From a virus (lineage: Duplodnaviria > Heunggongvirae > Uroviricota > Caudoviricetes): a stretch of 38,221 nt of DNA. The stretch lies in the IMG/VR virus record IMGVR_UViG_2565956731_000004, positions 1 through 38,221 of that record; one strand, 5' to 3'. A program made the position numbers and the translations under genes. The notes below the pieces were generated by a model, which did no database searches, had not been told where the DNA came from, and saw nothing but the letters and a program-made list of their open reading frames with translations. Of the stretch, positions 1,102 through 35,495 are shown one piece after another. Numbering within the stretch: the first letter of the stretch is position 1; each line of letters begins with the position of its first letter.

Positions 1102-1422
1102 TTAGCGGGGTGATTTTTGGTTTGTTTCGGTTGAAACCTGATCGCCCTCCGAATCGAAGAAGCCATCAAGAGAGAGAGGCGGAGCAATCTGCCCCGTCGC
1201 AGCATTAGTTTGATTAAACATCACCCAATCCGAATACTTCCGAAAACGAGGATGATTCAAAATCAGGAGTAGCGTTTCTCCAGGTATCATTCTTCCCAAT
1301 ATTTCATAATTTTTGAGATTGTTTTGAGATACCCCTGTCACCTCTTCCATCTCTCTACGTGACAATCCCTCTGCCTCTCGAATCAGGCGAAGTTTTTCTC
1401 CAAGGCTTGATTTATGGATCAT
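1102..1422 (-). CDS. immunity repressor (P2 C-type, HTH)
   Basis: About 106 aa from the internal ATG (MIHKSSLGEKLRLIREAEGLSRREMEEVTGVSQNNL: HTH); sits between int and divergent cox as in P2; start codon choice uncertain (track ORF starts at 1440). Confidence 0.7.
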   Translation of the reverse strand: MIHKSSLGEKLRLIREAEGLSRREMEEVTGVSQNNLKNYEILGRMIPGETLLLILNHPRFRKYSDWVMFNQTNAATGQIAPPLSLDGFFDSEGDQVSTETNQKSPR

Positions 1423-1440
1423 ATGTGATCTAAACTCCAC

Positions 1441-3906: not shown

Positions 3907-4169
3907 CCATTCTGGACTACATCGCTACTCATCCGGGGTGTAGCGGCGGAGAGATCGCCGCAGCACTGAATACCCCAGCCACAGCCATTAATGCTGAGTT
4001 ACGCCGACTTTGGCGCGGCGGCTTAGTCATCAGAACAAACCGCAGCACAGGTGGTCGCGCTCGCAAAACAGGAGGCCGGGCTTCTTACCACGTAAACCCG
4101 ATGCCGTTCGGGTGTAGCAATCCACTTACTCACATGTTTAACCAGCTACTGGAGGAAGCCAGAGCATGA
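3903..4169 (+). CDS. hypothetical early protein, possible small DNA-binding protein
   Basis: 88 aa; ATGA coupling to both neighbours; basic C-terminal half. Confidence 0.5.
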   Translation: MTILDYIATHPGCSGGEIAAALNTPATAINAELRRLWRGGLVIRTNRSTGGRARKTGGRASYHVNPMPFGCSNPLTHMFNQLLEEARA

Positions 4170-4465
4170 GCACCATCAACCACCAGAAGCTACGCGAACT
4201 GGCATTTGCCCTGCAACGAATGGCAACGCCTCAAAAATTACTGGCATTTCGCGCAATGCTCTCGCCGTCTGCTGTGCTGGCACTGCTGGATGAGCTAGAG
4301 CACGCCAGAACCACGGCTCCTGCCATTCGCCTGACGCTCCATCATGAAATCGCTGATTTCTGCGCGACGTTGGAGGCGCCGGGCGAACCGGAAACGCCGG
4401 AAGCAATACAGCAAGAGCTGCTGCAACGCATTGACAAGGTTTTTGATTTTTTTCTGAACCAGTAA
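4166..4465 (+). CDS. hypothetical early protein
   Basis: 99 aa; ATGA coupling; acidic, helical-looking. Confidence 0.5.
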   Translation: MSTINHQKLRELAFALQRMATPQKLLAFRAMLSPSAVLALLDELEHARTTAPAIRLTLHHEIADFCATLEAPGEPETPEAIQQELLQRIDKVFDFFLNQ

Positions 4466-4532
4466 GAAACCAGAACATGCACACACAAAAAAACCGCTTG
4501 CCATGCCTCAATCGGTCAGGTTACATTTCCGC

Positions 4533-4608
4533 TGCACCTCATAAAACGGGTGCCGGGATTCTCAACCCGATACAGAGCAAAGCGCATAACCGCGCCAGCG
4601 GTTTTTTT
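4533..4608 (+). ncRNA. candidate c4-like antisense RNA (about 75 nt)
   Basis: Sigma70-like -35 TTGCCA (4498..4503), 17-bp spacer, -10 TTACAT (4521..4526); intrinsic terminator AACCGC-GCCA-GCGGTT followed by T7 (4588..4608); lies directly upstream of an icd-like ORF as in P1 c4-icd; contains GATTCTCAAC, whose complement GTTGAGAA occurs in the downstream leader. Confidence 0.35.
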
Positions 4609-4787
4609 GTGCGTACTGTATTGCCACGTCTTTTTCGCGTCAGAATTATGGCGGGGCGTACGGGGCCGACTTCGGTCGGGCCGGATTCTTTGCTCTCCGG
4701 TGTTGAGAACCCTGTACGTCTCGCCACCCCGAGATTCTCAACTCTGGATGGTGAGTTATTTCTATCACTGAGCAAAGAGGCCACACC

Positions 4788-5018
4788 ATGGCAGACCGCA
4801 AACAGCACCGCGCTATCGCGGAGCGTCGTCACATCCAGACTGAAATCAACCGCAGACTTTCCCGCGCATCACGCGTCGCGCAAATCATGCACATCAATAT
4901 GCTGCATGAGCGCAGCCACGCACTATCAAACATTTATTCCGCCTCTGTTTTCAGCTATCTGGCGGATGATCTGCACGAGCTTCAACAGCTCATCCAGCAG
5001 CAAAACAAACTCCATTAA
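4788..5018 (+). CDS. Icd-like (cell-division-inhibitor-like) small protein
   Basis: 76 aa, MADRKQHRAIAERRHIQTEINRRLSRASRVAQIMHINMLHERSH...; AAGAGG RBS; recalled similarity to Icd-like proteins of P1 and P4-type elements. Confidence 0.45.
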   Translation: MADRKQHRAIAERRHIQTEINRRLSRASRVAQIMHINMLHERSHALSNIYSASVFSYLADDLHELQQLIQQQNKLH

Positions 5019-5090
5019 TTCCTGTTCCGGGCCTTTCCTGCACCTTGCGGCGGGAGGCCTTCGCACATCTGTAACAAGAGGATTGCCGCA

Positions 5091-5456
5091 ATGATTCTCG
5101 CCAACGACTTTCTTGAATACCTGCTCAACACAGAACGTGATCTTGCCGCTCGCGTGCGTGATCGTTATGACATGTACCTGAAATCCCTGCCTGTACCGCA
5201 GCTCGCTGACGGAAAGATTGTTATTGATGGTCGCTACATGATTGACAGCCACGAGGGAAATTACAGGCTTTACCGCATTGAAGGTGGCACCCCGTCCGTT
5301 ATTGGCATTTACCAGCGCCCATCCTCTGCAATCGTCGATGTGATTGCCGACAGCATCCGCATCACACATCGCCATGCCGACACAGAAGACACCGTGCTGG
5401 AAATTCAGCGGCTGGCTACAGTCTGCCGCGACACCCTGAATGGCATGACGAAGTAA
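5091..5456 (+). CDS. hypothetical protein immediately upstream of A
   Basis: 121 aa; AAGAGG RBS. Confidence 0.55.
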   Translation: MILANDFLEYLLNTERDLAARVRDRYDMYLKSLPVPQLADGKIVIDGRYMIDSHEGNYRLYRIEGGTPSVIGIYQRPSSAIVDVIADSIRITHRHADTEDTVLEIQRLATVCRDTLNGMTK

Positions 5457-5462
5457 ATCACT

Positions 5463-8285
5463 ATGACGGCAGAGTACATCAGGGACTGGCAACAACCGCG
5501 CCACGCAGTGGGGCGTGAAGGAACGGGGATCCCCGCTCCTGAATCCGCGCTTTCCTCCTGGCTGGATGCCTACCGGGTAGAGAACGAGCGCCGCCAGGAA
5601 ATGGCTGATGCGGCATTCTCCGCAACGCCGCTGGGCAACCTGATTAATAAAAGCCTGGACGCACAGGAAAAACAGGACAAAACCATCACACTGGCAAGAG
5701 ACGCCAGAAAACAGGCACGCGGCGCGGTGGATGAAGCCATGGCCTCGCTGCGCCTGCTGCCGTCCTATCTGCGCGATCCGCTTATTCGCCACCTCTCCTT
5801 CCTGCGCAAAAAACAGGAAGCCGATCGTCAGAAAGGCAAAAAGAGCTGGCAGGCAGAACGATATGCGCGCGGAACCCTGCGCAGGATATTCGAACGTCTG
5901 GACCGCACCGACACTCGCTGGCTGACACCGGCTTATCGCTCTCTTGCCGGACGTGAACGCCTGGATGATTTGCTTTACCTGCCGCAGCTCAACAAACACC
6001 AGATACAGACGCTGGCCACCATGACGGCGGCGATGTTCAGCAGCACTTTCGAAACACTCTGCGATAACTTTGGCGCGACCGATGGCGAGCTGACCATGAA
6101 AATCGCGCTGAAGGCGTATCAGATGCTGGCCCGCATGGCGTTACATCTGCACACCATGCCGCCGCATTACGAAGCACTGAGAACGGACAAAGACCGGAAG
6201 AACGCACCGGATACGGAGCTGCTGCCGGGGGCCATCCTTCGCCTGACCTGTGCGGAATGGTGGAAACGCAAACTGTGGCTGTTGCGTTGCGAGTGGCGGG
6301 AAGAACAACTCCGCGCCGCCTGTCTGGTTTCCAGAAAAACATCAGCCTATCTGAGCCAGGACGCGTTAAGCGAGTTTCGCGCACAGCGCGAGAAAACACG
6401 CGACTTCCTGAAAAGTTTCATGCTGGAAAACGAAGACGGATTCACGATTGATCTCGAGACAGTGTATTACGCAGGCGTCAGTAACCCGGTTCACCGTAAG
6501 GCAGAAATGATGGCCACCATGAAGGGGTTGGAACTTCTGGCCGAAGCCCGTGGCGACAAAGCGGTGTTTCTGACTGTCACCTGCCCGTCAAAATACCACG
6601 CAACAACGGAGAACGGTCATCCGAATCCCAGATGGAACGGGGCCACCATGCGCGACTCCAGCGATTACCTTGTTAACACGTTTTTTGCGGCGGTCCGCAA
6701 GAAACTGAACCGTGAGAAATTGCGCTGGTATGGCATCCGCACGGCGGAGCCACACCATGACGGCACGGTGCACTGGCATATGATGGTTTTTGCGCATCCG
6801 GATGAAATAGACACCATTGTGTCCCACGTCCGCGATATTGCCATTCAGGAAGACCGCCACGAGCTGGGTGATGACATAACCCCGCGCTTTGAGGCGGAGT
6901 ACGTCGACGGCTCAAAAGGCACACCGACCAGCTACATCGCCACCTACATCGGAAAAAACCTGGACAGCCGCGCCGTGGATGGCATCGACCCGAAAACGGG
7001 CAAGCCACGCGTTGACCACGAAACCGGAAAATCAATGGCCGAGAGCGTGGAGCGCGCCATCGGCTGGGCGCGCCTTCACCGGGTCCGCCAGTTCCAGTTC
7101 TTTGGTATCCCCTCCCGCCAGGTCTGGCGTGAACTGCGCCGCCTTGCCAGCCAGATGGCACGCAATCCGGGAGGCCCGCAACGTCTGGAAAATGACGCAA
7201 TGGACGCGGTACTCGCTGCCGCTGATGCCGGGTGTTTTGCCACCTACATTGAGAAACAGGGCGGCGTACTTGTTCCACGCAAAGACTACCTGATTCGCAC
7301 CGCCTACAACCTCGCAGATGAACTGAACGATTACGGCGAACAGAGCGTACAGATTTACGGGATCTGGTCGCCGCTCATCGGGGAGTCTTCCCGTGTGTGC
7401 ACGCACCCGGATAACTGGAAGCTGGTAAGACGTAAACCGGAAGCGGAAGACAGTGCCCACGAAAATGGTTTTGACCTTCAGGGCGGCCCTGCCGCCCCTT
7501 GGACTCGTGGCAATAACTGTCCCCGTGTACAGGAAACGGACAACAACGGGACAGAACAGCCGGAAGAACGGCCAGCACCGTGGCCGCAGCTTCCTGACGG
7601 CATTGAAGTGAACGAATGGATGCGCTCACTGAAACGGCACGAACGCCGGGCGCTGATGCGTTCGCTGCGTGACAAACAGGCCAAAAACAGCAGTGATGAA
7701 ATGCAGAGCTGGACACAGAGCCGCAAACAGCCGCGGCCTTTGCCTGATAACCACGAATTACTCGCTAAAGAATGGCGGGAGTCTGCTGAATCTCTCGGAC
7801 TGCATATTGGTGAACAGCAGATGCAGCACCTGTTACGGGGCGGCAGTCTGTACGTTGACGGCAGCATCATTGCACCGCAGGGATTTGAAATTGTACGCAA
7901 ACCGGATACCCGCCCGGACAGCCGAATCACGCAGCTCTGGCAGCGCCTGAGCCGTAATCACGGCGTAAGCAGCACGGAGATCCGCCATAACCCGGTCGCC
8001 AGCTATCTGGAACAGCTGGGGGCATCAGACCCTGAAGCCGCCACACGCCTGGCATCCACACTTCAGCAGGACCAGAACACCATGAAAACACCCGTTACCG
8101 TGCTTTCTGACATGCTGCGCGCCATCCGCGACGCAGAGCACGCACAGAGAATCAGTGAAACCACTGAACGTGCCCGCCGCAAAGCAGACCTGCTGCGGAG
8201 TGGCCTGACCAGTGGAAACAAAAAACAGACAGAAACGGGATTCACAAATCCCGTAAATGAGCAAAAAACGCGCCGCGATATATGA
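5463..8285 (+). CDS. A: replication initiation endonuclease (P2 gene A-like, HUH rolling-circle initiator) with long C-terminal extension
   Basis: 940 aa; HUH motif HWHMMVF and catalytic tyrosine pair SYIATYIGKN; from memory, about 180 aa longer than P2 A at the C-terminus. Confidence 0.9.
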   Translation: MTAEYIRDWQQPRHAVGREGTGIPAPESALSSWLDAYRVENERRQEMADAAFSATPLGNLINKSLDAQEKQDKTITLARDARKQARGAVDEAMASLRLLPSYLRDPLIRHLSFLRKKQEADRQKGKKSWQAERYARGTLRRIFERLDRTDTRWLTPAYRSLAGRERLDDLLYLPQLNKHQIQTLATMTAAMFSSTFETLCDNFGATDGELTMKIALKAYQMLARMALHLHTMPPHYEALRTDKDRKNAPDTELLPGAILRLTCAEWWKRKLWLLRCEWREEQLRAACLVSRKTSAYLSQDALSEFRAQREKTRDFLKSFMLENEDGFTIDLETVYYAGVSNPVHRKAEMMATMKGLELLAEARGDKAVFLTVTCPSKYHATTENGHPNPRWNGATMRDSSDYLVNTFFAAVRKKLNREKLRWYGIRTAEPHHDGTVHWHMMVFAHPDEIDTIVSHVRDIAIQEDRHELGDDITPRFEAEYVDGSKGTPTSYIATYIGKNLDSRAVDGIDPKTGKPRVDHETGKSMAESVERAIGWARLHRVRQFQFFGIPSRQVWRELRRLASQMARNPGGPQRLENDAMDAVLAAADAGCFATYIEKQGGVLVPRKDYLIRTAYNLADELNDYGEQSVQIYGIWSPLIGESSRVCTHPDNWKLVRRKPEAEDSAHENGFDLQGGPAAPWTRGNNCPRVQETDNNGTEQPEERPAPWPQLPDGIEVNEWMRSLKRHERRALMRSLRDKQAKNSSDEMQSWTQSRKQPRPLPDNHELLAKEWRESAESLGLHIGEQQMQHLLRGGSLYVDGSIIAPQGFEIVRKPDTRPDSRITQLWQRLSRNHGVSSTEIRHNPVASYLEQLGASDPEAATRLASTLQQDQNTMKTPVTVLSDMLRAIRDAEHAQRISETTERARRKADLLRSGLTSGNKKQTETGFTNPVNEQKTRRDI
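8233..8257. repeat. 25-bp repeat with internal palindrome ACGGGATT-N4-AATCCCGT (copy 1, inside the 3' end of A)
   Basis: aaacgggattcacaaatcccgtaaa; second copy 73 bp downstream. Confidence 0.7.
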
Positions 8286-8361: not shown

Positions 8362-9321
8362 ATGAAAATTTGTATCGACGACGGCTCCACCAACATCAAG
8401 CTGGCATGGACTGAGAACAGCGAACGCCGCAACGCCATCAGCCCGAACAGCTTCAAGTCGGAATGGTCTGCGCCGTTCGGTGGCTCGCAGCCTGCGAACT
8501 ACATGCTTGATGGCGTGCGCTATGGTTTTGATCCGGTCAGCGATCGCTTTGTCCAGACGACCGACACGCAATACCAGTACAGCGATGTGAATGTAATCGC
8601 CATTCACCACGCGCTGGTCAAATCAGGCATCACACCACAGGAGGTGGATGTGGTTGTCACCCTGCCACTGAGCGAGTATTTCGACACAAACGCACAGCCG
8701 GACATGGCCAACATCAACCGCAAAAAAGCAAACGTCATGCGCCCGGTGGAGTACCAGAACGGCGAAGCATTCACTATCCGTAACGTGCGGGTTATGCCTG
8801 AATCCATTCCGGCTGGCTTTAAGGCACTGGCTGACATGAGTCCGTTTGAATCCCTGCTGATTGTGGATTTAGGCGGAACCACGCTGGATGTGGCAAAGGT
8901 CCAGGGACAACTGGCAGGTATCAGCCAGGTGTTTTGCGATCCACACGTAGGCGTTTCCCTGATGGCCGATGCCGTACTGTCGGTGATGGCCACTAACGGT
9001 ATGCGTACCAGTCACCATATCGCCAATACCATTATCGAACATCGCCACGATGAAGCCTGGCTGCGCCAGCACATCCACAATGACGCGCATTACGACAGCC
9101 TGATGGCGGTTATTCGTGAAAAGGAAGAAACACTGAAACAACGAGTGATCCGCGCGCTGGCGGGTTTTTCGGGTTACGGGCGGGTGATGGTTGTCGGTGG
9201 CGGGGCGGAGATTGTGGCACCCGCTATCCGCGAAGCCTGCGGAGTTAATGCGACTTTCATCGCGGACGGGGTGCCACAGTTTGCTCTGGTTAATGGGCTG
9301 TACGCAATGGACAAGGAGTAA
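8362..9321 (+). CDS. actin-like ATPase, ParM/StbA family
   Basis: 319 aa; N-terminus MKICIDDGSTNIKLAW...ISPNSFK...YQYSDVNVIAIHHAL closely parallels the recalled plasmid R1 ParM N-terminus (MLVFIDDGSTNIKLQW...SPNSFK...WQYSDVNVVAVHHAL); glycine-rich VDLGGTT and VVGGGA motifs. Confidence 0.8.
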   Translation: MKICIDDGSTNIKLAWTENSERRNAISPNSFKSEWSAPFGGSQPANYMLDGVRYGFDPVSDRFVQTTDTQYQYSDVNVIAIHHALVKSGITPQEVDVVVTLPLSEYFDTNAQPDMANINRKKANVMRPVEYQNGEAFTIRNVRVMPESIPAGFKALADMSPFESLLIVDLGGTTLDVAKVQGQLAGISQVFCDPHVGVSLMADAVLSVMATNGMRTSHHIANTIIEHRHDEAWLRQHIHNDAHYDSLMAVIREKEETLKQRVIRALAGFSGYGRVMVVGGGAEIVAPAIREACGVNATFIADGVPQFALVNGLYAMDKE

Positions 9322-9700: not shown

Positions 9701-10033
9701 ATGCAACACATTGACAGAGAAAAAGCGCAGCGACTGATTGAGCGGATGGAAGCGCTGGCGAAAGAAGAAAATGTCAACATCCAAAAAATAGCTGAATGTG
9801 GCCAGATAGTTCTTCGTCGTGAAAAAGACCTCAAACAACTGATGTCTGGCGAAACCAGCAAAACATGGACTTCAGGCGAGGAGACGATTTATTGCAGCTT
9901 CTGCAATAAATCTCAGTACGAAGTCACAAAGGTGATTGCCGGACCGTCTGTTTGCATCTGCAATGAGTGCGTGGATTTGTGCAATGAAATTATCAGGAGA
10001 GAAGTGACAGACAAAAAGGGAAAAAACGCATGA
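9701..10033 (+). CDS. protein with C-terminal ClpX-type C4 zinc-binding domain
   Basis: 110 aa; C-terminal [34 protein letters not shown] is near-identical in pattern to the E. coli ClpX N-terminal domain ([34 protein letters not shown]); about 60 aa of unrelated N-terminal sequence; AAGGGGGA RBS. Confidence 0.7.
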
Positions 10034-32501: not shown

Positions 32502-32658
32502 AGCTTCAGCCCCTTGTATCCGTTAAATGATTCGGCAACAATCATCACCCACCACGCGCGTAATCTCACTCCTGCGCCATTCTCCCGCCACGGCGACAAC
32601 AAAAAGCAGTAACCCCCTCCGCACGCACATGCGACCATGCCGCACAGGGAGGGAACAG

Positions 32659-33768
32659 ATGACCGACACCACCATGCAATTGCTCAGTCAGGGCACAGAC
32701 CCCGTGAAAATGCCGGATTTTGATATTCTCGCGGAGGGTAAAACGCTGTCAGGCGTGGCAGAGCGCCTGATGAGCCTGTCACTGACCGACAACCGGGGAT
32801 TTGAAGCAGACCAGCTCACCATCACGCTGGATGATGCGGATGGTCAGTTGCAGCTACCGCCACGGGGCGCGCGCCTGACGGTTCTCATTGGCTGGAAAGG
32901 AGAACCGCTGACAGAAAAAGGCACTTACATTGTTGATGAAATCGCTCACGAAGGACCGCCGGACAGGCTGACTGTTTCAGCCAGAAGTGCAGATTTTCGG
33001 GATGAATTTAACGTTAAACGTGAGGTGTCCTGGCATGATGTGACCGTTGAACGTGTGGTATCCGCCATCGCTCATCGGTACGGCCTGAAACCGCAAATCA
33101 GCGAAATGCTGATGGATATCGAAATCGACCACGCCGACCAGACTGAAGAAAGCGACATGTCCTTCCTTACGCGCATGGCGGAAATGCTGGGCGCAATCAC
33201 CACGGTAAAAAGCGGCAATCTGTTATTCATCATGCCAGGTGGTGGCGTGAACGCACAGGGCCAGCCGTTGCCCTCGTTCGCCATTACACGCAGCAGCGGC
33301 GATCGCCATCAGTTCCGCATTGCTGACCGCGAGGCGTATACGGGGGTACGCGCCTACTGGCTTGATCTTAATTACGGGAAAAAGAAAAAAGTCAGCGTGA
33401 AACGCCGCAAACCGCCAAAACCCAAAAAGGAGAAAAGCAGCAGCCGTGAAGGTGATTATATGGAAGGCGCGGAAGGCAATGTGTTTGTGTTACGCAAGAC
33501 TTATCAGAACGAGCAGGCAGCAAGACGCGCAGCGGCGGCAAAGTGGCAGCAGCTACAACGCGGAGCCGCATCATTCTCCATCACACTGGCACGCGGACGC
33601 GCAGAACTCTACCCCGAAATGCATGGCACGGTAACAGGATTTAAAAGCGAGATTGATAATCAGGACTGGATTATTGCAAAAGTCGAGCACACCGTTGATA
33701 ACAGCGGCTTTACCACGCAGCTTGAGCTTGAAGCAAAAATCCCGGAATGGATAGCGGAAACAGAATGA
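32659..33768 (+). CDS. D: tail protein D (late control gene D-like)
   Basis: 369 aa from the ATG with GGGAGGG RBS (MTDTTMQLL...); divergent from FI rather than downstream of U. Confidence 0.85.
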   Translation: MTDTTMQLLSQGTDPVKMPDFDILAEGKTLSGVAERLMSLSLTDNRGFEADQLTITLDDADGQLQLPPRGARLTVLIGWKGEPLTEKGTYIVDEIAHEGPPDRLTVSARSADFRDEFNVKREVSWHDVTVERVVSAIAHRYGLKPQISEMLMDIEIDHADQTEESDMSFLTRMAEMLGAITTVKSGNLLFIMPGGGVNAQGQPLPSFAITRSSGDRHQFRIADREAYTGVRAYWLDLNYGKKKKVSVKRRKPPKPKKEKSSSREGDYMEGAEGNVFVLRKTYQNEQAARRAAAAKWQQLQRGAASFSITLARGRAELYPEMHGTVTGFKSEIDNQDWIIAKVEHTVDNSGFTTQLELEAKIPEWIAETE

Positions 33769-33916: not shown

Positions 33917-34975
33917 TTAAAAATTATTTATTATGTGTTCAGCTAAATGATCATACTCACCAGCCATCTCATTCATTAGTTCTACCTGATTAACTGCCCA
34001 TTGCCCCCGCCCACGAAGAGCATTCGTTGGCCTAACTCGAGACAAATAGCGAATAGGTATATTTTGAATAATACTATCAGGAGCCATAACGTTGAGGTCC
34101 TCAATCTTTCCAACTGGTTCATAATCAGTAAAATCAGGAACCGCGTTGTAAGATGAAATCTGTGAAAGCTGAGGAAGCATTTTTTCCTCTATCGCTTTTC
34201 TTATTGAACGGTGATGAACTGCATCTGCACCAACCTCTTGTTTAACATCATTTTGCTTTCTCGTATCAAAACCATTGAATATCCAACCGCCAAATTTAGG
34301 CATCCCTTTCTGAGATATAATATTATCTCGTGGGTTACCTGATAGATATCTTTCCTTGCCCTGCTCCCAATCACGTATAAATGATGGCAACATCTCACCA
34401 ATCAGCCCTACACAATATGAAGAGAATAAATCAGGTGTGCATGGAACTAAAAAATAGTCCGAACAGTACAATGACGATCTAACAAGCGTATTGAATGAGG
34501 GAGGTAAATCTATTAGGACATAATCATAAATAACATCATTTTTCTCTGATGCTTTTTTTGTTATCAAATCTGGCAAAATAAAACGATATAACCCTGCGCC
34601 ACTTATAACATCAGTGCCGACATTTAAAATATCTGAAAATGTATTAAGCCAAAAGTCTCCAGGAACAATATGCAAAACGCCTGCATCTGTCTTAGTCTTA
34701 GGTTCTGTTGTATAAACTTCACCTATAGTATTTTGTTGTATGTAAGGCAATGCAAATGCTTTAACCGTTTTTCCAAAAGGGAAATCATCTGAAGGTTCCA
34801 ATAACTCTGAAAATTCCTCATCACCAATACATGCAATTGAGAGATTACACTGGGGATCAAAGTCTATTAATAAAACACTTTTTCCTTTATCTGCTAGCGA
34901 TACTGCAAGATTCCAAATTATAGTTGTTTTACCAACACCACCTTTGTTATTAAAAATCGATATAGTTTTTGTCAT
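33917..34975 (-). CDS. ParA/MinD-family P-loop ATPase with about 100-aa C-terminal extension, AT-rich gene
   Basis: 352 aa; deviant Walker A KGGVGKTT near the N-terminus; LLIDFDPQCN and DYVLIDLPP motifs; flanked by AT-rich intergenic DNA; composition clearly AT-richer than the tail genes. Confidence 0.8.
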   Translation of the reverse strand: MTKTISIFNNKGGVGKTTIIWNLAVSLADKGKSVLLIDFDPQCNLSIACIGDEEFSELLEPSDDFPFGKTVKAFALPYIQQNTIGEVYTTEPKTKTDAGVLHIVPGDFWLNTFSDILNVGTDVISGAGLYRFILPDLITKKASEKNDVIYDYVLIDLPPSFNTLVRSSLYCSDYFLVPCTPDLFSSYCVGLIGEMLPSFIRDWEQGKERYLSGNPRDNIISQKGMPKFGGWIFNGFDTRKQNDVKQEVGADAVHHRSIRKAIEEKMLPQLSQISSYNAVPDFTDYEPVGKIEDLNVMAPDSIIQNIPIRYLSRVRPTNALRGRGQWAVNQVELMNEMAGEYDHLAEHIINNF

Positions 34976-35234: not shown

Positions 35235-35495
35235 ATGTTTCGTTGTCCGCTTTGTGGCGCATCTGCCCGTATCCGCACCAGTCGTCCTGAAAATGATTCA
35301 AACACCGTGCGGCAAAAGTATTACCAGTGTAACAATCTGGAATGCGGCGTATGCTTCTCAACACTGGAAGCTTTCCATAAATTCACATCAAAACACGCCT
35401 CCGGCGCTCTCTCTTCAGAAGGTATCCCGTGGCATAAGCTGCCAGCTTCACACAGGGGAAACAATCAGATGAGTTTGCCTTTACCTCAGAATTAA
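35235..35495 (+). CDS. ogr: late gene activator, Ogr/Delta zinc-finger family
   Basis: 86 aa; MFRCPLCG...YYQCNNLECGVCF Cys4 arrangement as in P2 Ogr; located near the prophage right end. Confidence 0.75.
   Translation: MFRCPLCGASARIRTSRPENDSNTVRQKYYQCNNLECGVCFSTLEAFHKFTSKHASGALSSEGIPWHKLPASHRGNNQMSLPLPQN

Follow-up and report, generated by a model that had tools for sequence, protein, structure and literature searches.

What is encoded in the part of a P2-like prophage's early operon that lies between an Ead-like gene and the replication initiator gene A, and which genes might it control? The question is raised by IMG/VR virus record IMGVR_UViG_2565956731_000004 (positions 1 to 38,221; this whole stretch of 38,221 nucleotides (nt) is called the window below), in which an earlier note had placed, at 4498 to 5018, a promoter-like element, a c4-like antisense RNA, a plain leader of 180 nt and a small open reading frame (ORF) resembling Icd of phage P1. 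Judged by its sequence, the locus belongs to a known kind of module, IsrK-C4, which corresponds to SeqA-CI of P4 and to a1b1-c4 of P1. We consider it probable that the region is such an RNA immunity module, sitting in the early operon of a prophage of the P2-like P88/Xuanwuvirus type, and that it works by the mechanism proposed below. Its main elements are the following.

4498..4527, plus strand: sigma-70-like promoter site, with a -35 hexamer TTGCCA (4498-4503), an 18-nt spacer and a -10 hexamer TACATT (4522-4527); 9 of 12 positions match the consensus.
4534..4608, plus strand: IsrK / P4 SeqA-type leader RNA of 75 nt, in which two hairpins and a single-stranded spacer precede an intrinsic terminator.
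4644..4731, plus strand: C4 / P4 CI-type antisense RNA (Rfam RF01695, matched over the full model from position 1 to 87; 78.5 bits, where the cut-off is 45).
4788..5018, plus strand: gene for a protein of 76 amino acids (aa) of the P4 epsilon (Derepression) family, with a Shine-Dalgarno sequence, AGAGG, 7 nt before the ATG.

A search of the whole 38-kb window with Rfam at gathering thresholds returned exactly two matches, C4 at 4644-4731 and isrK at 4534-4608. The isrK match (RF01394) is full length (model positions 1-77) and scores 62.8 bits against a gathering cut-off of 50, while C4 reaches 100.7 bits with a covariance model built in this analysis. The IsrK-like RNA has a predicted folding energy of -24.2 kcal/mol (z = -3.1) and ends in an intrinsic terminator at 4588-4608, where the stem AACCGC/GCGGTT is followed by seven T residues. 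C4 has a minimum free energy (MFE) of -47.6 kcal/mol (z = -4.9); its 17-base-pair closing stem encloses two hairpins, and a 10-nt loop, that of hairpin 2, and an 8-nt single-stranded linker form the elements designated b' and a', respectively. Sequence marks for processing are found at both of its sides, AAUUAU/GG at the 5' side and GCCACC at the 3' side, and these align with the mature ends of P1 C4. By alignment with the annotated P1 RNA, mature C4 is predicted to span about 4650-4728 (approximately 79 nt), and it would be released from a longer transcript, as in P1 and P4.

Relatives of the locus were collected by scanning IMG/VR with the 76-aa protein. Eighty loci, with protein identities of 91-100%, were kept; their 331-nt upstream regions are 82-100% identical, and the 41 distinct sequences among these were aligned. 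Both promoter hexamers are invariant in the 41 relatives. The predicted transcription start lies at about 4534, and the -10 hexamer ends 7 nt ahead of the start of the RNA model, a geometry also seen at P51b of P1; the site at 4498..4527 would be expected to start transcription near 4534. The three helices internal to C4 are 100%, 100% and 89% paired in the alignment, and five of their pairs show changes on both sides. Moreover, exactly one C4 is present just upstream of a 76-aa-type ORF in all 84 of 84 related loci.

Among the relatives, the conserved stretch has a sharp left edge some 14 nt ahead of the -35 hexamer, beyond which (4470..4484) five different sequences are found. This edge, together with the variety of upstream sequences, suggests that the cassette from promoter to ORF moves as a unit between contexts. 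A second promoter-like site, at 4621-4649, was considered as a promoter for C4 itself and rejected: the predicted start would fall within the C4 closing stem, the -35 hexamer varies among relatives, and the supposed -10 hexamer, AATTAT, is the conserved 5' flank of C4, which is also present in P1.

The two RNAs and the messenger RNA (mRNA) of the 76-aa gene are connected by six short sites, which are listed here.

4559..4566, plus strand: a1 site, TTCTCAAC, in the loop of hairpin 2 of the IsrK-like RNA; exact 8-nt complement of a'.
4574..4582, plus strand: b1 site, AGAGCAAAG, in the IsrK-like RNA; exact 9-nt complement of b'.
4686..4696, plus strand: b' element, TTCTTTGCTCT, the loop of C4 hairpin 2; column entropy 0.80 bits versus 0.15-0.18 in the C4 stems.
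4702..4709, plus strand: a' element, GTTGAGAA, the single-stranded linker of C4.
4735..4742, plus strand: a2 target, TTCTCAAC, 4 nt past the Rfam C4 match; 8-nt complement of a', positioned as a2 of P1.
4770..4779, plus strand: b2 target, GAGCAAAGAG; 9 nt plus one G-U pair with b', positioned as b2 of P1.

The b2 target overlaps the Shine-Dalgarno sequence of the 76-aa ORF (AGAGG, 4776-4780). Predicted duplexes between C4 and its targets have energies of -10.2 to -14.3 kcal/mol, values that were matched by 0-7 of 500 shuffled targets; the b'-b2 duplex, at -14.3 kcal/mol, was reached by none of the 500. Elsewhere in the window, a search for further C4 targets yielded 8-mers that occur singly, at chance level, and never in pairs.

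These results bear on most of what the earlier note had read from the letters. Its promoter-like element in the early operon is present, and so is its stretch of roughly 75 nt with an intrinsic terminator, which also folds stably, as it had proposed to check. The general idea of an immunity arrangement like that of P1 c4 was right as well: a small RNA is predicted to pair with sequences surrounding the ribosome-binding site of the ORF, the C4 model does match, and the predicted pairings are stable. What had to be revised is the assignment of the parts. The covariance-model scan that it had suggested does give a match above the cut-off, but at 4644..4731 and not at 4533..4608, so that the stretch described as a leader before the ORF, which does exist with a length of 179 nt, is not a plain leader, as it holds a complete C4 RNA. 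The complementary sequences that it had pointed out are likewise there, namely GATTCTCAAC at 4558-4567, its complement GTTGAGAA at 4702-4709 and a second sense copy at 4734-4743; however, GTTGAGAA belongs to C4 as its own a' and not to a leader. Finally, one set of complementary sequences had been found but a second set was overlooked, in which CTTTGCTC (4688-4695) is complementary to GAGCAAAG at both 4575-4582 and 4770-4777.

If these sites pair in nature, they should change together, and this is what the alignment of the 41 relatives contains. Per-column entropy is 0.57-0.93 bits in the six sites versus 0.03-0.21 bits in the promoter, isrK hairpin 1, the terminator, the spacer and the C4 stems; the stretch from a2 to b2, which does not pair, falls in between (0.37 bits). 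For the internal helices of isrK and C4 taken together with a'-a2 and b'-b2, 97.4% of the cells are paired, versus 38-46% in slid controls, in which the 3' partners were moved by 1-3 columns; changes on both sides occur in 9 of the 18 intermolecular pairs between C4 and its mRNA targets (4 of 8 for a2, 5 of 10 for b2). The pairing of the IsrK-like RNA with C4 is supported to a similar extent: a1-a' and b1-b' are paired in 96.1% of cells (28-59% when slid), b1 being paired in 100%, and both partners have changed in 10 of 17 pairs (4 of 8 for a1, 6 of 9 for b1). Its covariation score of 0.632 compares with 0.119 in shuffles and was reached by none of 500. On comparative grounds, this joint change of six sites argues strongly for pairing of C4 with both sets of targets and for a role of the C4 loops as a specificity code; by analogy with the heteroimmunity of known systems, the loop sequences may well set immunity specificity.

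Ten loop combinations occur among the 41 distinct relatives, and 13 when three further genomes are included. Four of the types are given as examples.

Type of the window: a/a' TTCTCAAC / GTTGAGAA; b/b' GAGCAAAG / CTTTGCTC.
Type L041: a/a' TTTCCAC / GTGGAAA; b/b' CAACTACAG / CTGTAGTTG.
Type L048: a/a' TTTCGCAG / CTGCGAA; b/b' CTACACAAG / CTTGTGTAG.
Type L080: a/a' TTGGAAC / GTTCCAA; b/b' CTAACAGAG / CTCTGTTAG.

A genome scan seeded with a narrower epsilon-family alignment gave 4 species-level loci. Additional types that match three ways but have new loop sequences were found in Salmonella, in a contig labelled Vagococcus (a label that we guess to reflect contamination) and in Trabulsiella, where the three-way match is kept though the protein is just 46% identical. 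E. albertii, too, has new loop sequences that agree at all three places.

Could the terminated RNA at 4534-4608 nevertheless be the repressor, as the earlier note had it, acting in c4 fashion on an Icd-like gene through a plain 180-nt leader? The 75-nt RNA is real in sequence terms, its GATTCTCAAC does complement GTTGAGAA at 4702-4709, and to judge from the covariation it does pair with a downstream element. However, it is the isrK/SeqA model, at 62.8 bits, that this RNA matches, it carries a1 and b1, and the C4 model matches 4644-4731 instead. Because a1 and b1 have the same sense as a2 and b2 of the mRNA, the 75-nt RNA cannot pair with the ribosome-binding region. In terms of its sequence, it is a sense mimic of the target and not an antisense repressor. 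Since, in addition, the 76-aa ORF lacks similarity to Icd, we hold this version to be very improbable.

A different objection is that the region may encode a protein of the Ash family, in an ORF of 205 aa at 4477..5094, rather than RNAs. The Prokaryotic Genome Annotation Pipeline (PGAP) labels the equivalent stretch of a close relative "similar to ash family protein", the frame is open in 38 of the 41 relatives, and it has a weak match to PF10554 (E 8e-4, below the cut-off). Yet the ratio of nonsynonymous to synonymous substitution rates (dN/dS) is 1.03 in this frame and 0.92-0.93 in the other two, as opposed to 0.25 for the 76-aa ORF, which the longer ORF overlaps in another frame, and the substitutions in the region are compensatory at the RNA level. 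Furthermore, the P4 ORF that matches PF10554 itself overlaps the CI RNA gene. With dN/dS near 1 in frame, an Ash-like protein at 4477..5094 was rejected, and we attach next to no credence to it. The "Ash" label that Pfam and PGAP place on the locus most likely describes translated RNA genes.

The Pfam family itself, PF10554 ("Phage_ASH"), appears to model translated RNA genes. It matches, with 59.7 bits, the old "cI ORF" of P4 (P4 8171..8584, minus strand), the ORF lying over CI RNA. A survey of P4-like satellites took PF10554 as a marker of epsilon (PMC8628076); P4 epsilon itself matches PF25738.

The 76-aa ORF, on the other hand, is a real gene, as the earlier note had supposed, with a Shine-Dalgarno sequence and a dN/dS of 0.25 that indicates purifying selection, but it is not Icd-like: BLASTP gave no alignment with P1 Icd at E <= 100, and the two proteins have no Pfam family in common. 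Instead, it matches Pfam PF25738 "Derepression" (E 7.5e-8, 32.5 bits, cut-off 27), a family whose founding member, P4 epsilon, scores 170 bits against it, as well as phrog_3688 (E 6e-46), many homologues being labelled "derepression protein". With P4 epsilon, BLASTP finds 32% identity over 50 aa (E 6e-9); sequence searches of NCBIfam and PDB with the ORF found nothing. According to Liu et al. (1997), as cited in PMC8628076, P4 epsilon derepresses P2 by way of the C repressor. The window contains a gene for a C-type repressor of the P2 kind next to Cox, and this, together with the epsilon-family match, makes an epsilon-type antirepressor the best reading of the 76-aa protein. Thus, its product is a putative antirepressor and the putative first gene product controlled by C4, and it is more likely, going by its family, to be the antirepressor itself than a division inhibitor that precedes one. 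By analogy with P1, the gene is best read as a positional analogue of icd and a functional analogue of ant.

The rest of the window provides the setting. It represents a P2-like E. coli prophage with the gene order integrase, C-type repressor and Cox, early operon, gene A and late genes, and over 4166-5460 it shares 93.6-96.2% identity with Escherichia phages vB_EcoM-569R5, Xuanwuvirus P884B11 and P88. The RNA module belongs to the rightward early operon; an Ead-like gene of 99 aa, ending at 4465, precedes it, and the 76-aa ORF (4788-5018) follows. The genes that matter to its presumed function are as follows.

1102..1440, minus strand: P2 C-type immunity repressor (phmmer match to the P2 C protein, PDB 2XCJ/2L49, E 2.5e-13), adjoined by the Cox gene (PF10743).
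5091..5456, plus strand: ORF of 121 aa (phrog_3237), in the same transcription unit downstream of the 76-aa ORF; kept in 60 of the 80 related loci.
5463..8285, plus strand: replication initiator gene A, P2 gpA family, 940 aa (PF05840, E 1e-127).

By analogy with P4 epsilon and P2 C, the C repressor at 1102..1440 is the presumed protein target of the epsilon-like product. Gene A is found downstream of the module in 75 of the 80 related loci, and the remaining five are short (3.2-3.6 kb) and may end earlier. A consensus scan detected no promoter-like site between 4650 and 5600, and hence none from the module to gene A, and expression of gene A probably depends on transcription through the RNA module. 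Control of the module by the SOS response was rejected, as matches to the LexA box occur in the window only at chance frequency and none of them is near the module.

How, then, might the module work? Apart from the pairings, which the comparative data show, every step proposed here, from the activity of the promoter to the direction in which the IsrK-like RNA acts, is argued by analogy with published mechanisms, namely those of P1 c4-icd-ant (P1 annotation), P4 CI (PMC3632133) and Gifsy-1 IsrK (PMC4825925). Transcription from the promoter at 4498-4527 would start near 4534, and many transcripts would end at the terminator at 4588-4608, yielding an IsrK/SeqA-like RNA of about 75 nt that displays a1 and b1. 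Transcripts that read through, as well as early-operon transcripts arriving from upstream, would contain the C4 precursor, to be processed to C4 of about 79 nt. The b' loop and a' linker of C4 would then pair with b2 and a2 on the mRNA and mask the Shine-Dalgarno sequence of the 76-aa gene, and without translation the probable antirepressor of the phage's own P2 C-type repressor would stay silent. Through polarity, fewer transcripts would probably reach the 121-aa ORF and gene A, an effect that has been described for P1 icd-ant and for P4. The a1 and b1 sites, whether on the short RNA or in cis, would compete with the mRNA target for C4, and the ratio of IsrK-like RNA to C4 would set the switch.

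Several points weigh against this reading. The terminator is strong, so that synthesis of C4 would depend on read-through. In the MFE fold of the read-through RNA (4534-4830), a1 and b1 pair with a' and b' in cis and the C4 fold is disrupted; such a helix could keep C4 from forming on some transcripts. The c4-a1b1 model (Rfam RF03163), which describes the P1 counterpart, gives the leader only 15.9 bits (4521..4573), below its cut-off of 46.7. The antirepressor reading rests on 32% identity to P4 epsilon over 50 residues. Finally, two of the known systems differ in output: Gifsy-1 IsrK is an activator that works through a structural switch in cis and not a free C4-like repressor (PMC4825925), and the main output in P4 is transcription termination, unlike the translation block proposed here.

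Each of these two outputs suggests an alternative. Following P4, C4 could be mainly a transcription-termination factor that, by pairing with a1/b1 and a2/b2, keeps transcription from reaching gene A. In that case, what the module confers would be immunity at the level of replication, with the epsilon-like gene merely as its first passenger. The layout equals that of the P4 immunity region, with seqA, CI, epsilon, small ORFs and a replication gene in order, the two sets of targets are conserved, each being required in P4 (PMC3632133), and gene A follows in 75 of 80 loci with no promoter-like site in between. The RNA over the 76-aa ORF is C-rich and G-poor, with a GC skew of -0.17 to -0.33, and is rut-like in this respect; loading of Rho would be possible when the ORF is untranslated. 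On the other side, the location of b2 over the Shine-Dalgarno sequence is exactly that seen in P1 and speaks for a block of translation as the primary effect, and no terminator-like sites were found on the plus strand between 4740 and 5460. A translation block followed by polarity would lead to the same outcome, so this possibility and the proposed mechanism are not exclusive; as the main output, we consider termination possible but on balance unlikely.

Following Gifsy-1, the read-through mRNA could adopt an inhibitory fold in which the C4-like element takes part, acting chiefly in cis, and the short IsrK-like RNA would be the activator that opens this fold in trans. The MFE fold of 4534-4830, in which a1/b1 pair with a'/b', is similar to structure A of the isrK-orf45 RNA, and IsrK of Salmonella raises translation of anrP more than 100-fold (PMC4825925). 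However, the full C4 scaffold, including its RNase P-type GCCACC end, is kept at high score in 84 of 84 loci, and a2 and b2 covary with the loops, which a switch driven purely by a1b1 does not require. We regard this kind of output as unlikely, and return to the proposed mechanism, in which a trans-acting C4 would block translation of the epsilon-like gene, as the probable one. As an observation apart, the cis fold of 4534..4830 resembles the translationally inactive structure A of the Gifsy-1 isrK-orf45 RNA.

Some further genes of the window deserve a note. Directly after gene A, at 8362..9321 (plus strand), lies a gene for a plasmid-type ParM segregation ATPase (PF06406/PF21523), followed at 9701..10033 (plus strand) by one whose small product has a zinc finger of the ClpX type; an integrating P2-like phage would not be expected to have a partition system. 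A gene for a ParA/MinD-like P-loop ATPase at 33917..34975 (minus strand), which lies on the opposite strand and is flanked by late gene D (32527..33768) and an Ogr/Delta zinc-finger gene (35235..35495), has the appearance of an inserted accessory gene.

How widespread is the module, and what does it mean? A megablast search with the 267-nt unit (4534..4800) found it in 1112 of 5426 complete E. coli genomes (approximately 20%), with up to 4 copies per genome. The identities of these matches fall into two bands, at least 95% (501 records) and 80-90% (610 records), in line with the classes of loop types. The IsrK-C4 system is textbook knowledge where P1 and P4 are concerned, and it has also been recorded from lambdoid prophages, but our literature search found no description of it in P2-like phages, the helper family of P4. 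The undescribed part is therefore the setting: a P2-like phage of the helper type, in which an epsilon-family gene, itself followed by gene A, comes directly after the module. Should the 76-aa protein prove to be an antirepressor that acts on the repressor of its own phage, the locus would offer a concrete route for the induction and heteroimmunity of a group of prophages present in about one-fifth of complete E. coli genomes, and it links the origin of the P4 immunity and derepression cassette to the helpers of P4. The three-site covariation set, with its 13 natural specificity variants, is also a resource on the diversification of RNA-RNA recognition codes.

A wider proposal can be made tentatively, though we think it somewhat more apt to fail than to hold. 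P88-type phages, which are of the helper type, have the seqA-CI-epsilon cassette of their satellite P4 in a position directly ahead of the replication initiator. This cassette may be a second, RNA-based layer of immunity over C and may gate replication as well as self-derepression, the latter by means of an epsilon-type antirepressor directed at the C of the same phage; it may diversify into many heteroimmune types (13 seen) under frequency-dependent selection; and it may be the source or a sibling of P4 immunity and derepression. Given a prevalence of approximately 20% in E. coli, it might then be one of the main factors that decide on induction and on superinfection exclusion in P2-like prophages.

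The known systems allow these views to be placed. IsrK has been equated with P4 SeqA and C4 with CI, and an "IsrK-C4 immunity system" is recognized in P4, P1, P7, N15 and lambdoid Salmonella prophages (PMC3632133; PMC4825925). In many lambdoid and Stx2a-converting phages, mEp460 and N15, the whole 198-nt IsrK+C4 unit is present at 68-74% identity with the same spacing, and it adjoins antirepressor, Rha or regulator genes. Both the downstream cargo and the phage family differ from those of the window, and the likeness is confined to the RNA unit. Examples of the unit are AP012536.1 7895-8080, NC_019716.1 33457-33642 and AF064539.1 28317-28471; in most of these records it is unannotated or lies under a protein feature, and one GenBank record annotates both RNAs.

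In the isrK - orf45/STnc1160 - anrP region of Gifsy-1, transcripts that pass the end of a terminated IsrK continue into a CI/C4-like RNA and an antirepressor gene, an order shared with the window, where the antirepressor is putative. The short RNA is complementary to a downstream element, and an alternative structure forms in cis, both of which are also predicted for the window. Gifsy-1, however, is a lambdoid phage, and its antirepressor, AnrP, is not epsilon-like. Activation by IsrK there proceeds through translational coupling with orf45, and Hfq binding and activation of a read-through mRNA in trans are known only for this IsrK (PMC4825925).

P4 comes closer in its downstream genes. In its immunity region (PLE, seqA, CI RNA (seqB), seqC, kil/eta, epsilon, orf151, cnr, alpha), both RNAs match the same Rfam models with similar scores, and both P4 and P1 give the isrK and C4 matches in the same order as the window. 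In P4, as in the window, an epsilon-family gene and then a replication gene lie downstream (the order after CI RNA is epsilon, orf151, orf106 and alpha), and the promoter of the window sits where PLE sits in P4 and P51b in P1. There are differences nonetheless. P4 is a satellite, whereas the window element is a complete phage of the helper type; the replication gene is alpha, a primase, in P4 (and in 79 of 80 P4-like loci) but gpA in the window; the seqA-CI spacer is 107 nt in P4 and 35 nt in the window; and the 121-aa ORF has no similarity to orf151. In P4, 245 nt separate CI from epsilon, whereas the epsilon-like gene of the window is the first ORF, 56 nt past C4. The P4 interval carries the small kil/eta genes, and in P4-like satellite loci, too, the C4 matches lie about 245 nt ahead of epsilon.

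P4-like satellites vary their loop types combinatorially among relatives, as does the phage set: 80 satellite loci have 13 CI loop combinations, which arise by free reassortment of 3 a' types with about 7 b' types. No loop combination is common to these 13 types and the 10 types of the P88-type phage set. The only cross-complementarity between phage and satellite is that of the phage a' GTGGAAA (L041) with its exact complement, the satellite a' TTTCCAC, which at 7 nt may be due to chance. With no common combination and this single a'-a' match, RNA cross-talk between helper and satellite was dropped as a candidate.

The architecture is also like that of the immI region of P1 and P7 (P51b, a1-b1, c4, a2-b2, icd, ant1/ant2), in which the order and the spacing of the elements are the same as in the window. 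In P1, too, the -10 hexamer ends 7 nt before the leader RNA model, a1 and b1 are separated by 7 nt, a2 follows C4 by a few nucleotides, and the first ORF has its Shine-Dalgarno sequence at b2. Outside the loops, the C4 scaffold of the window is 68% identical to that of P1 and closer to it than to P4 CI. The leader RNA has, by its sequence, the same structure as the c4-a1b1 element, yet is better described by the isrK model: the scores of the window (isrK 62.8, c4-a1b1 15.9 bits) are reversed in P1 (c4-a1b1 51.0, isrK 35 bits), and the P4 leader scores 44.1 bits with the c4-a1b1 model. P1 is a plasmid prophage in which the first ORF is Icd, followed by Ant1/2, whereas the window phage is P2-like and integrative and has an epsilon-family gene and then gene A, with no Ant1/2 gene. 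In P1 and P7, the loops define heteroimmunity, and it is this likeness that we draw with the module of the window.

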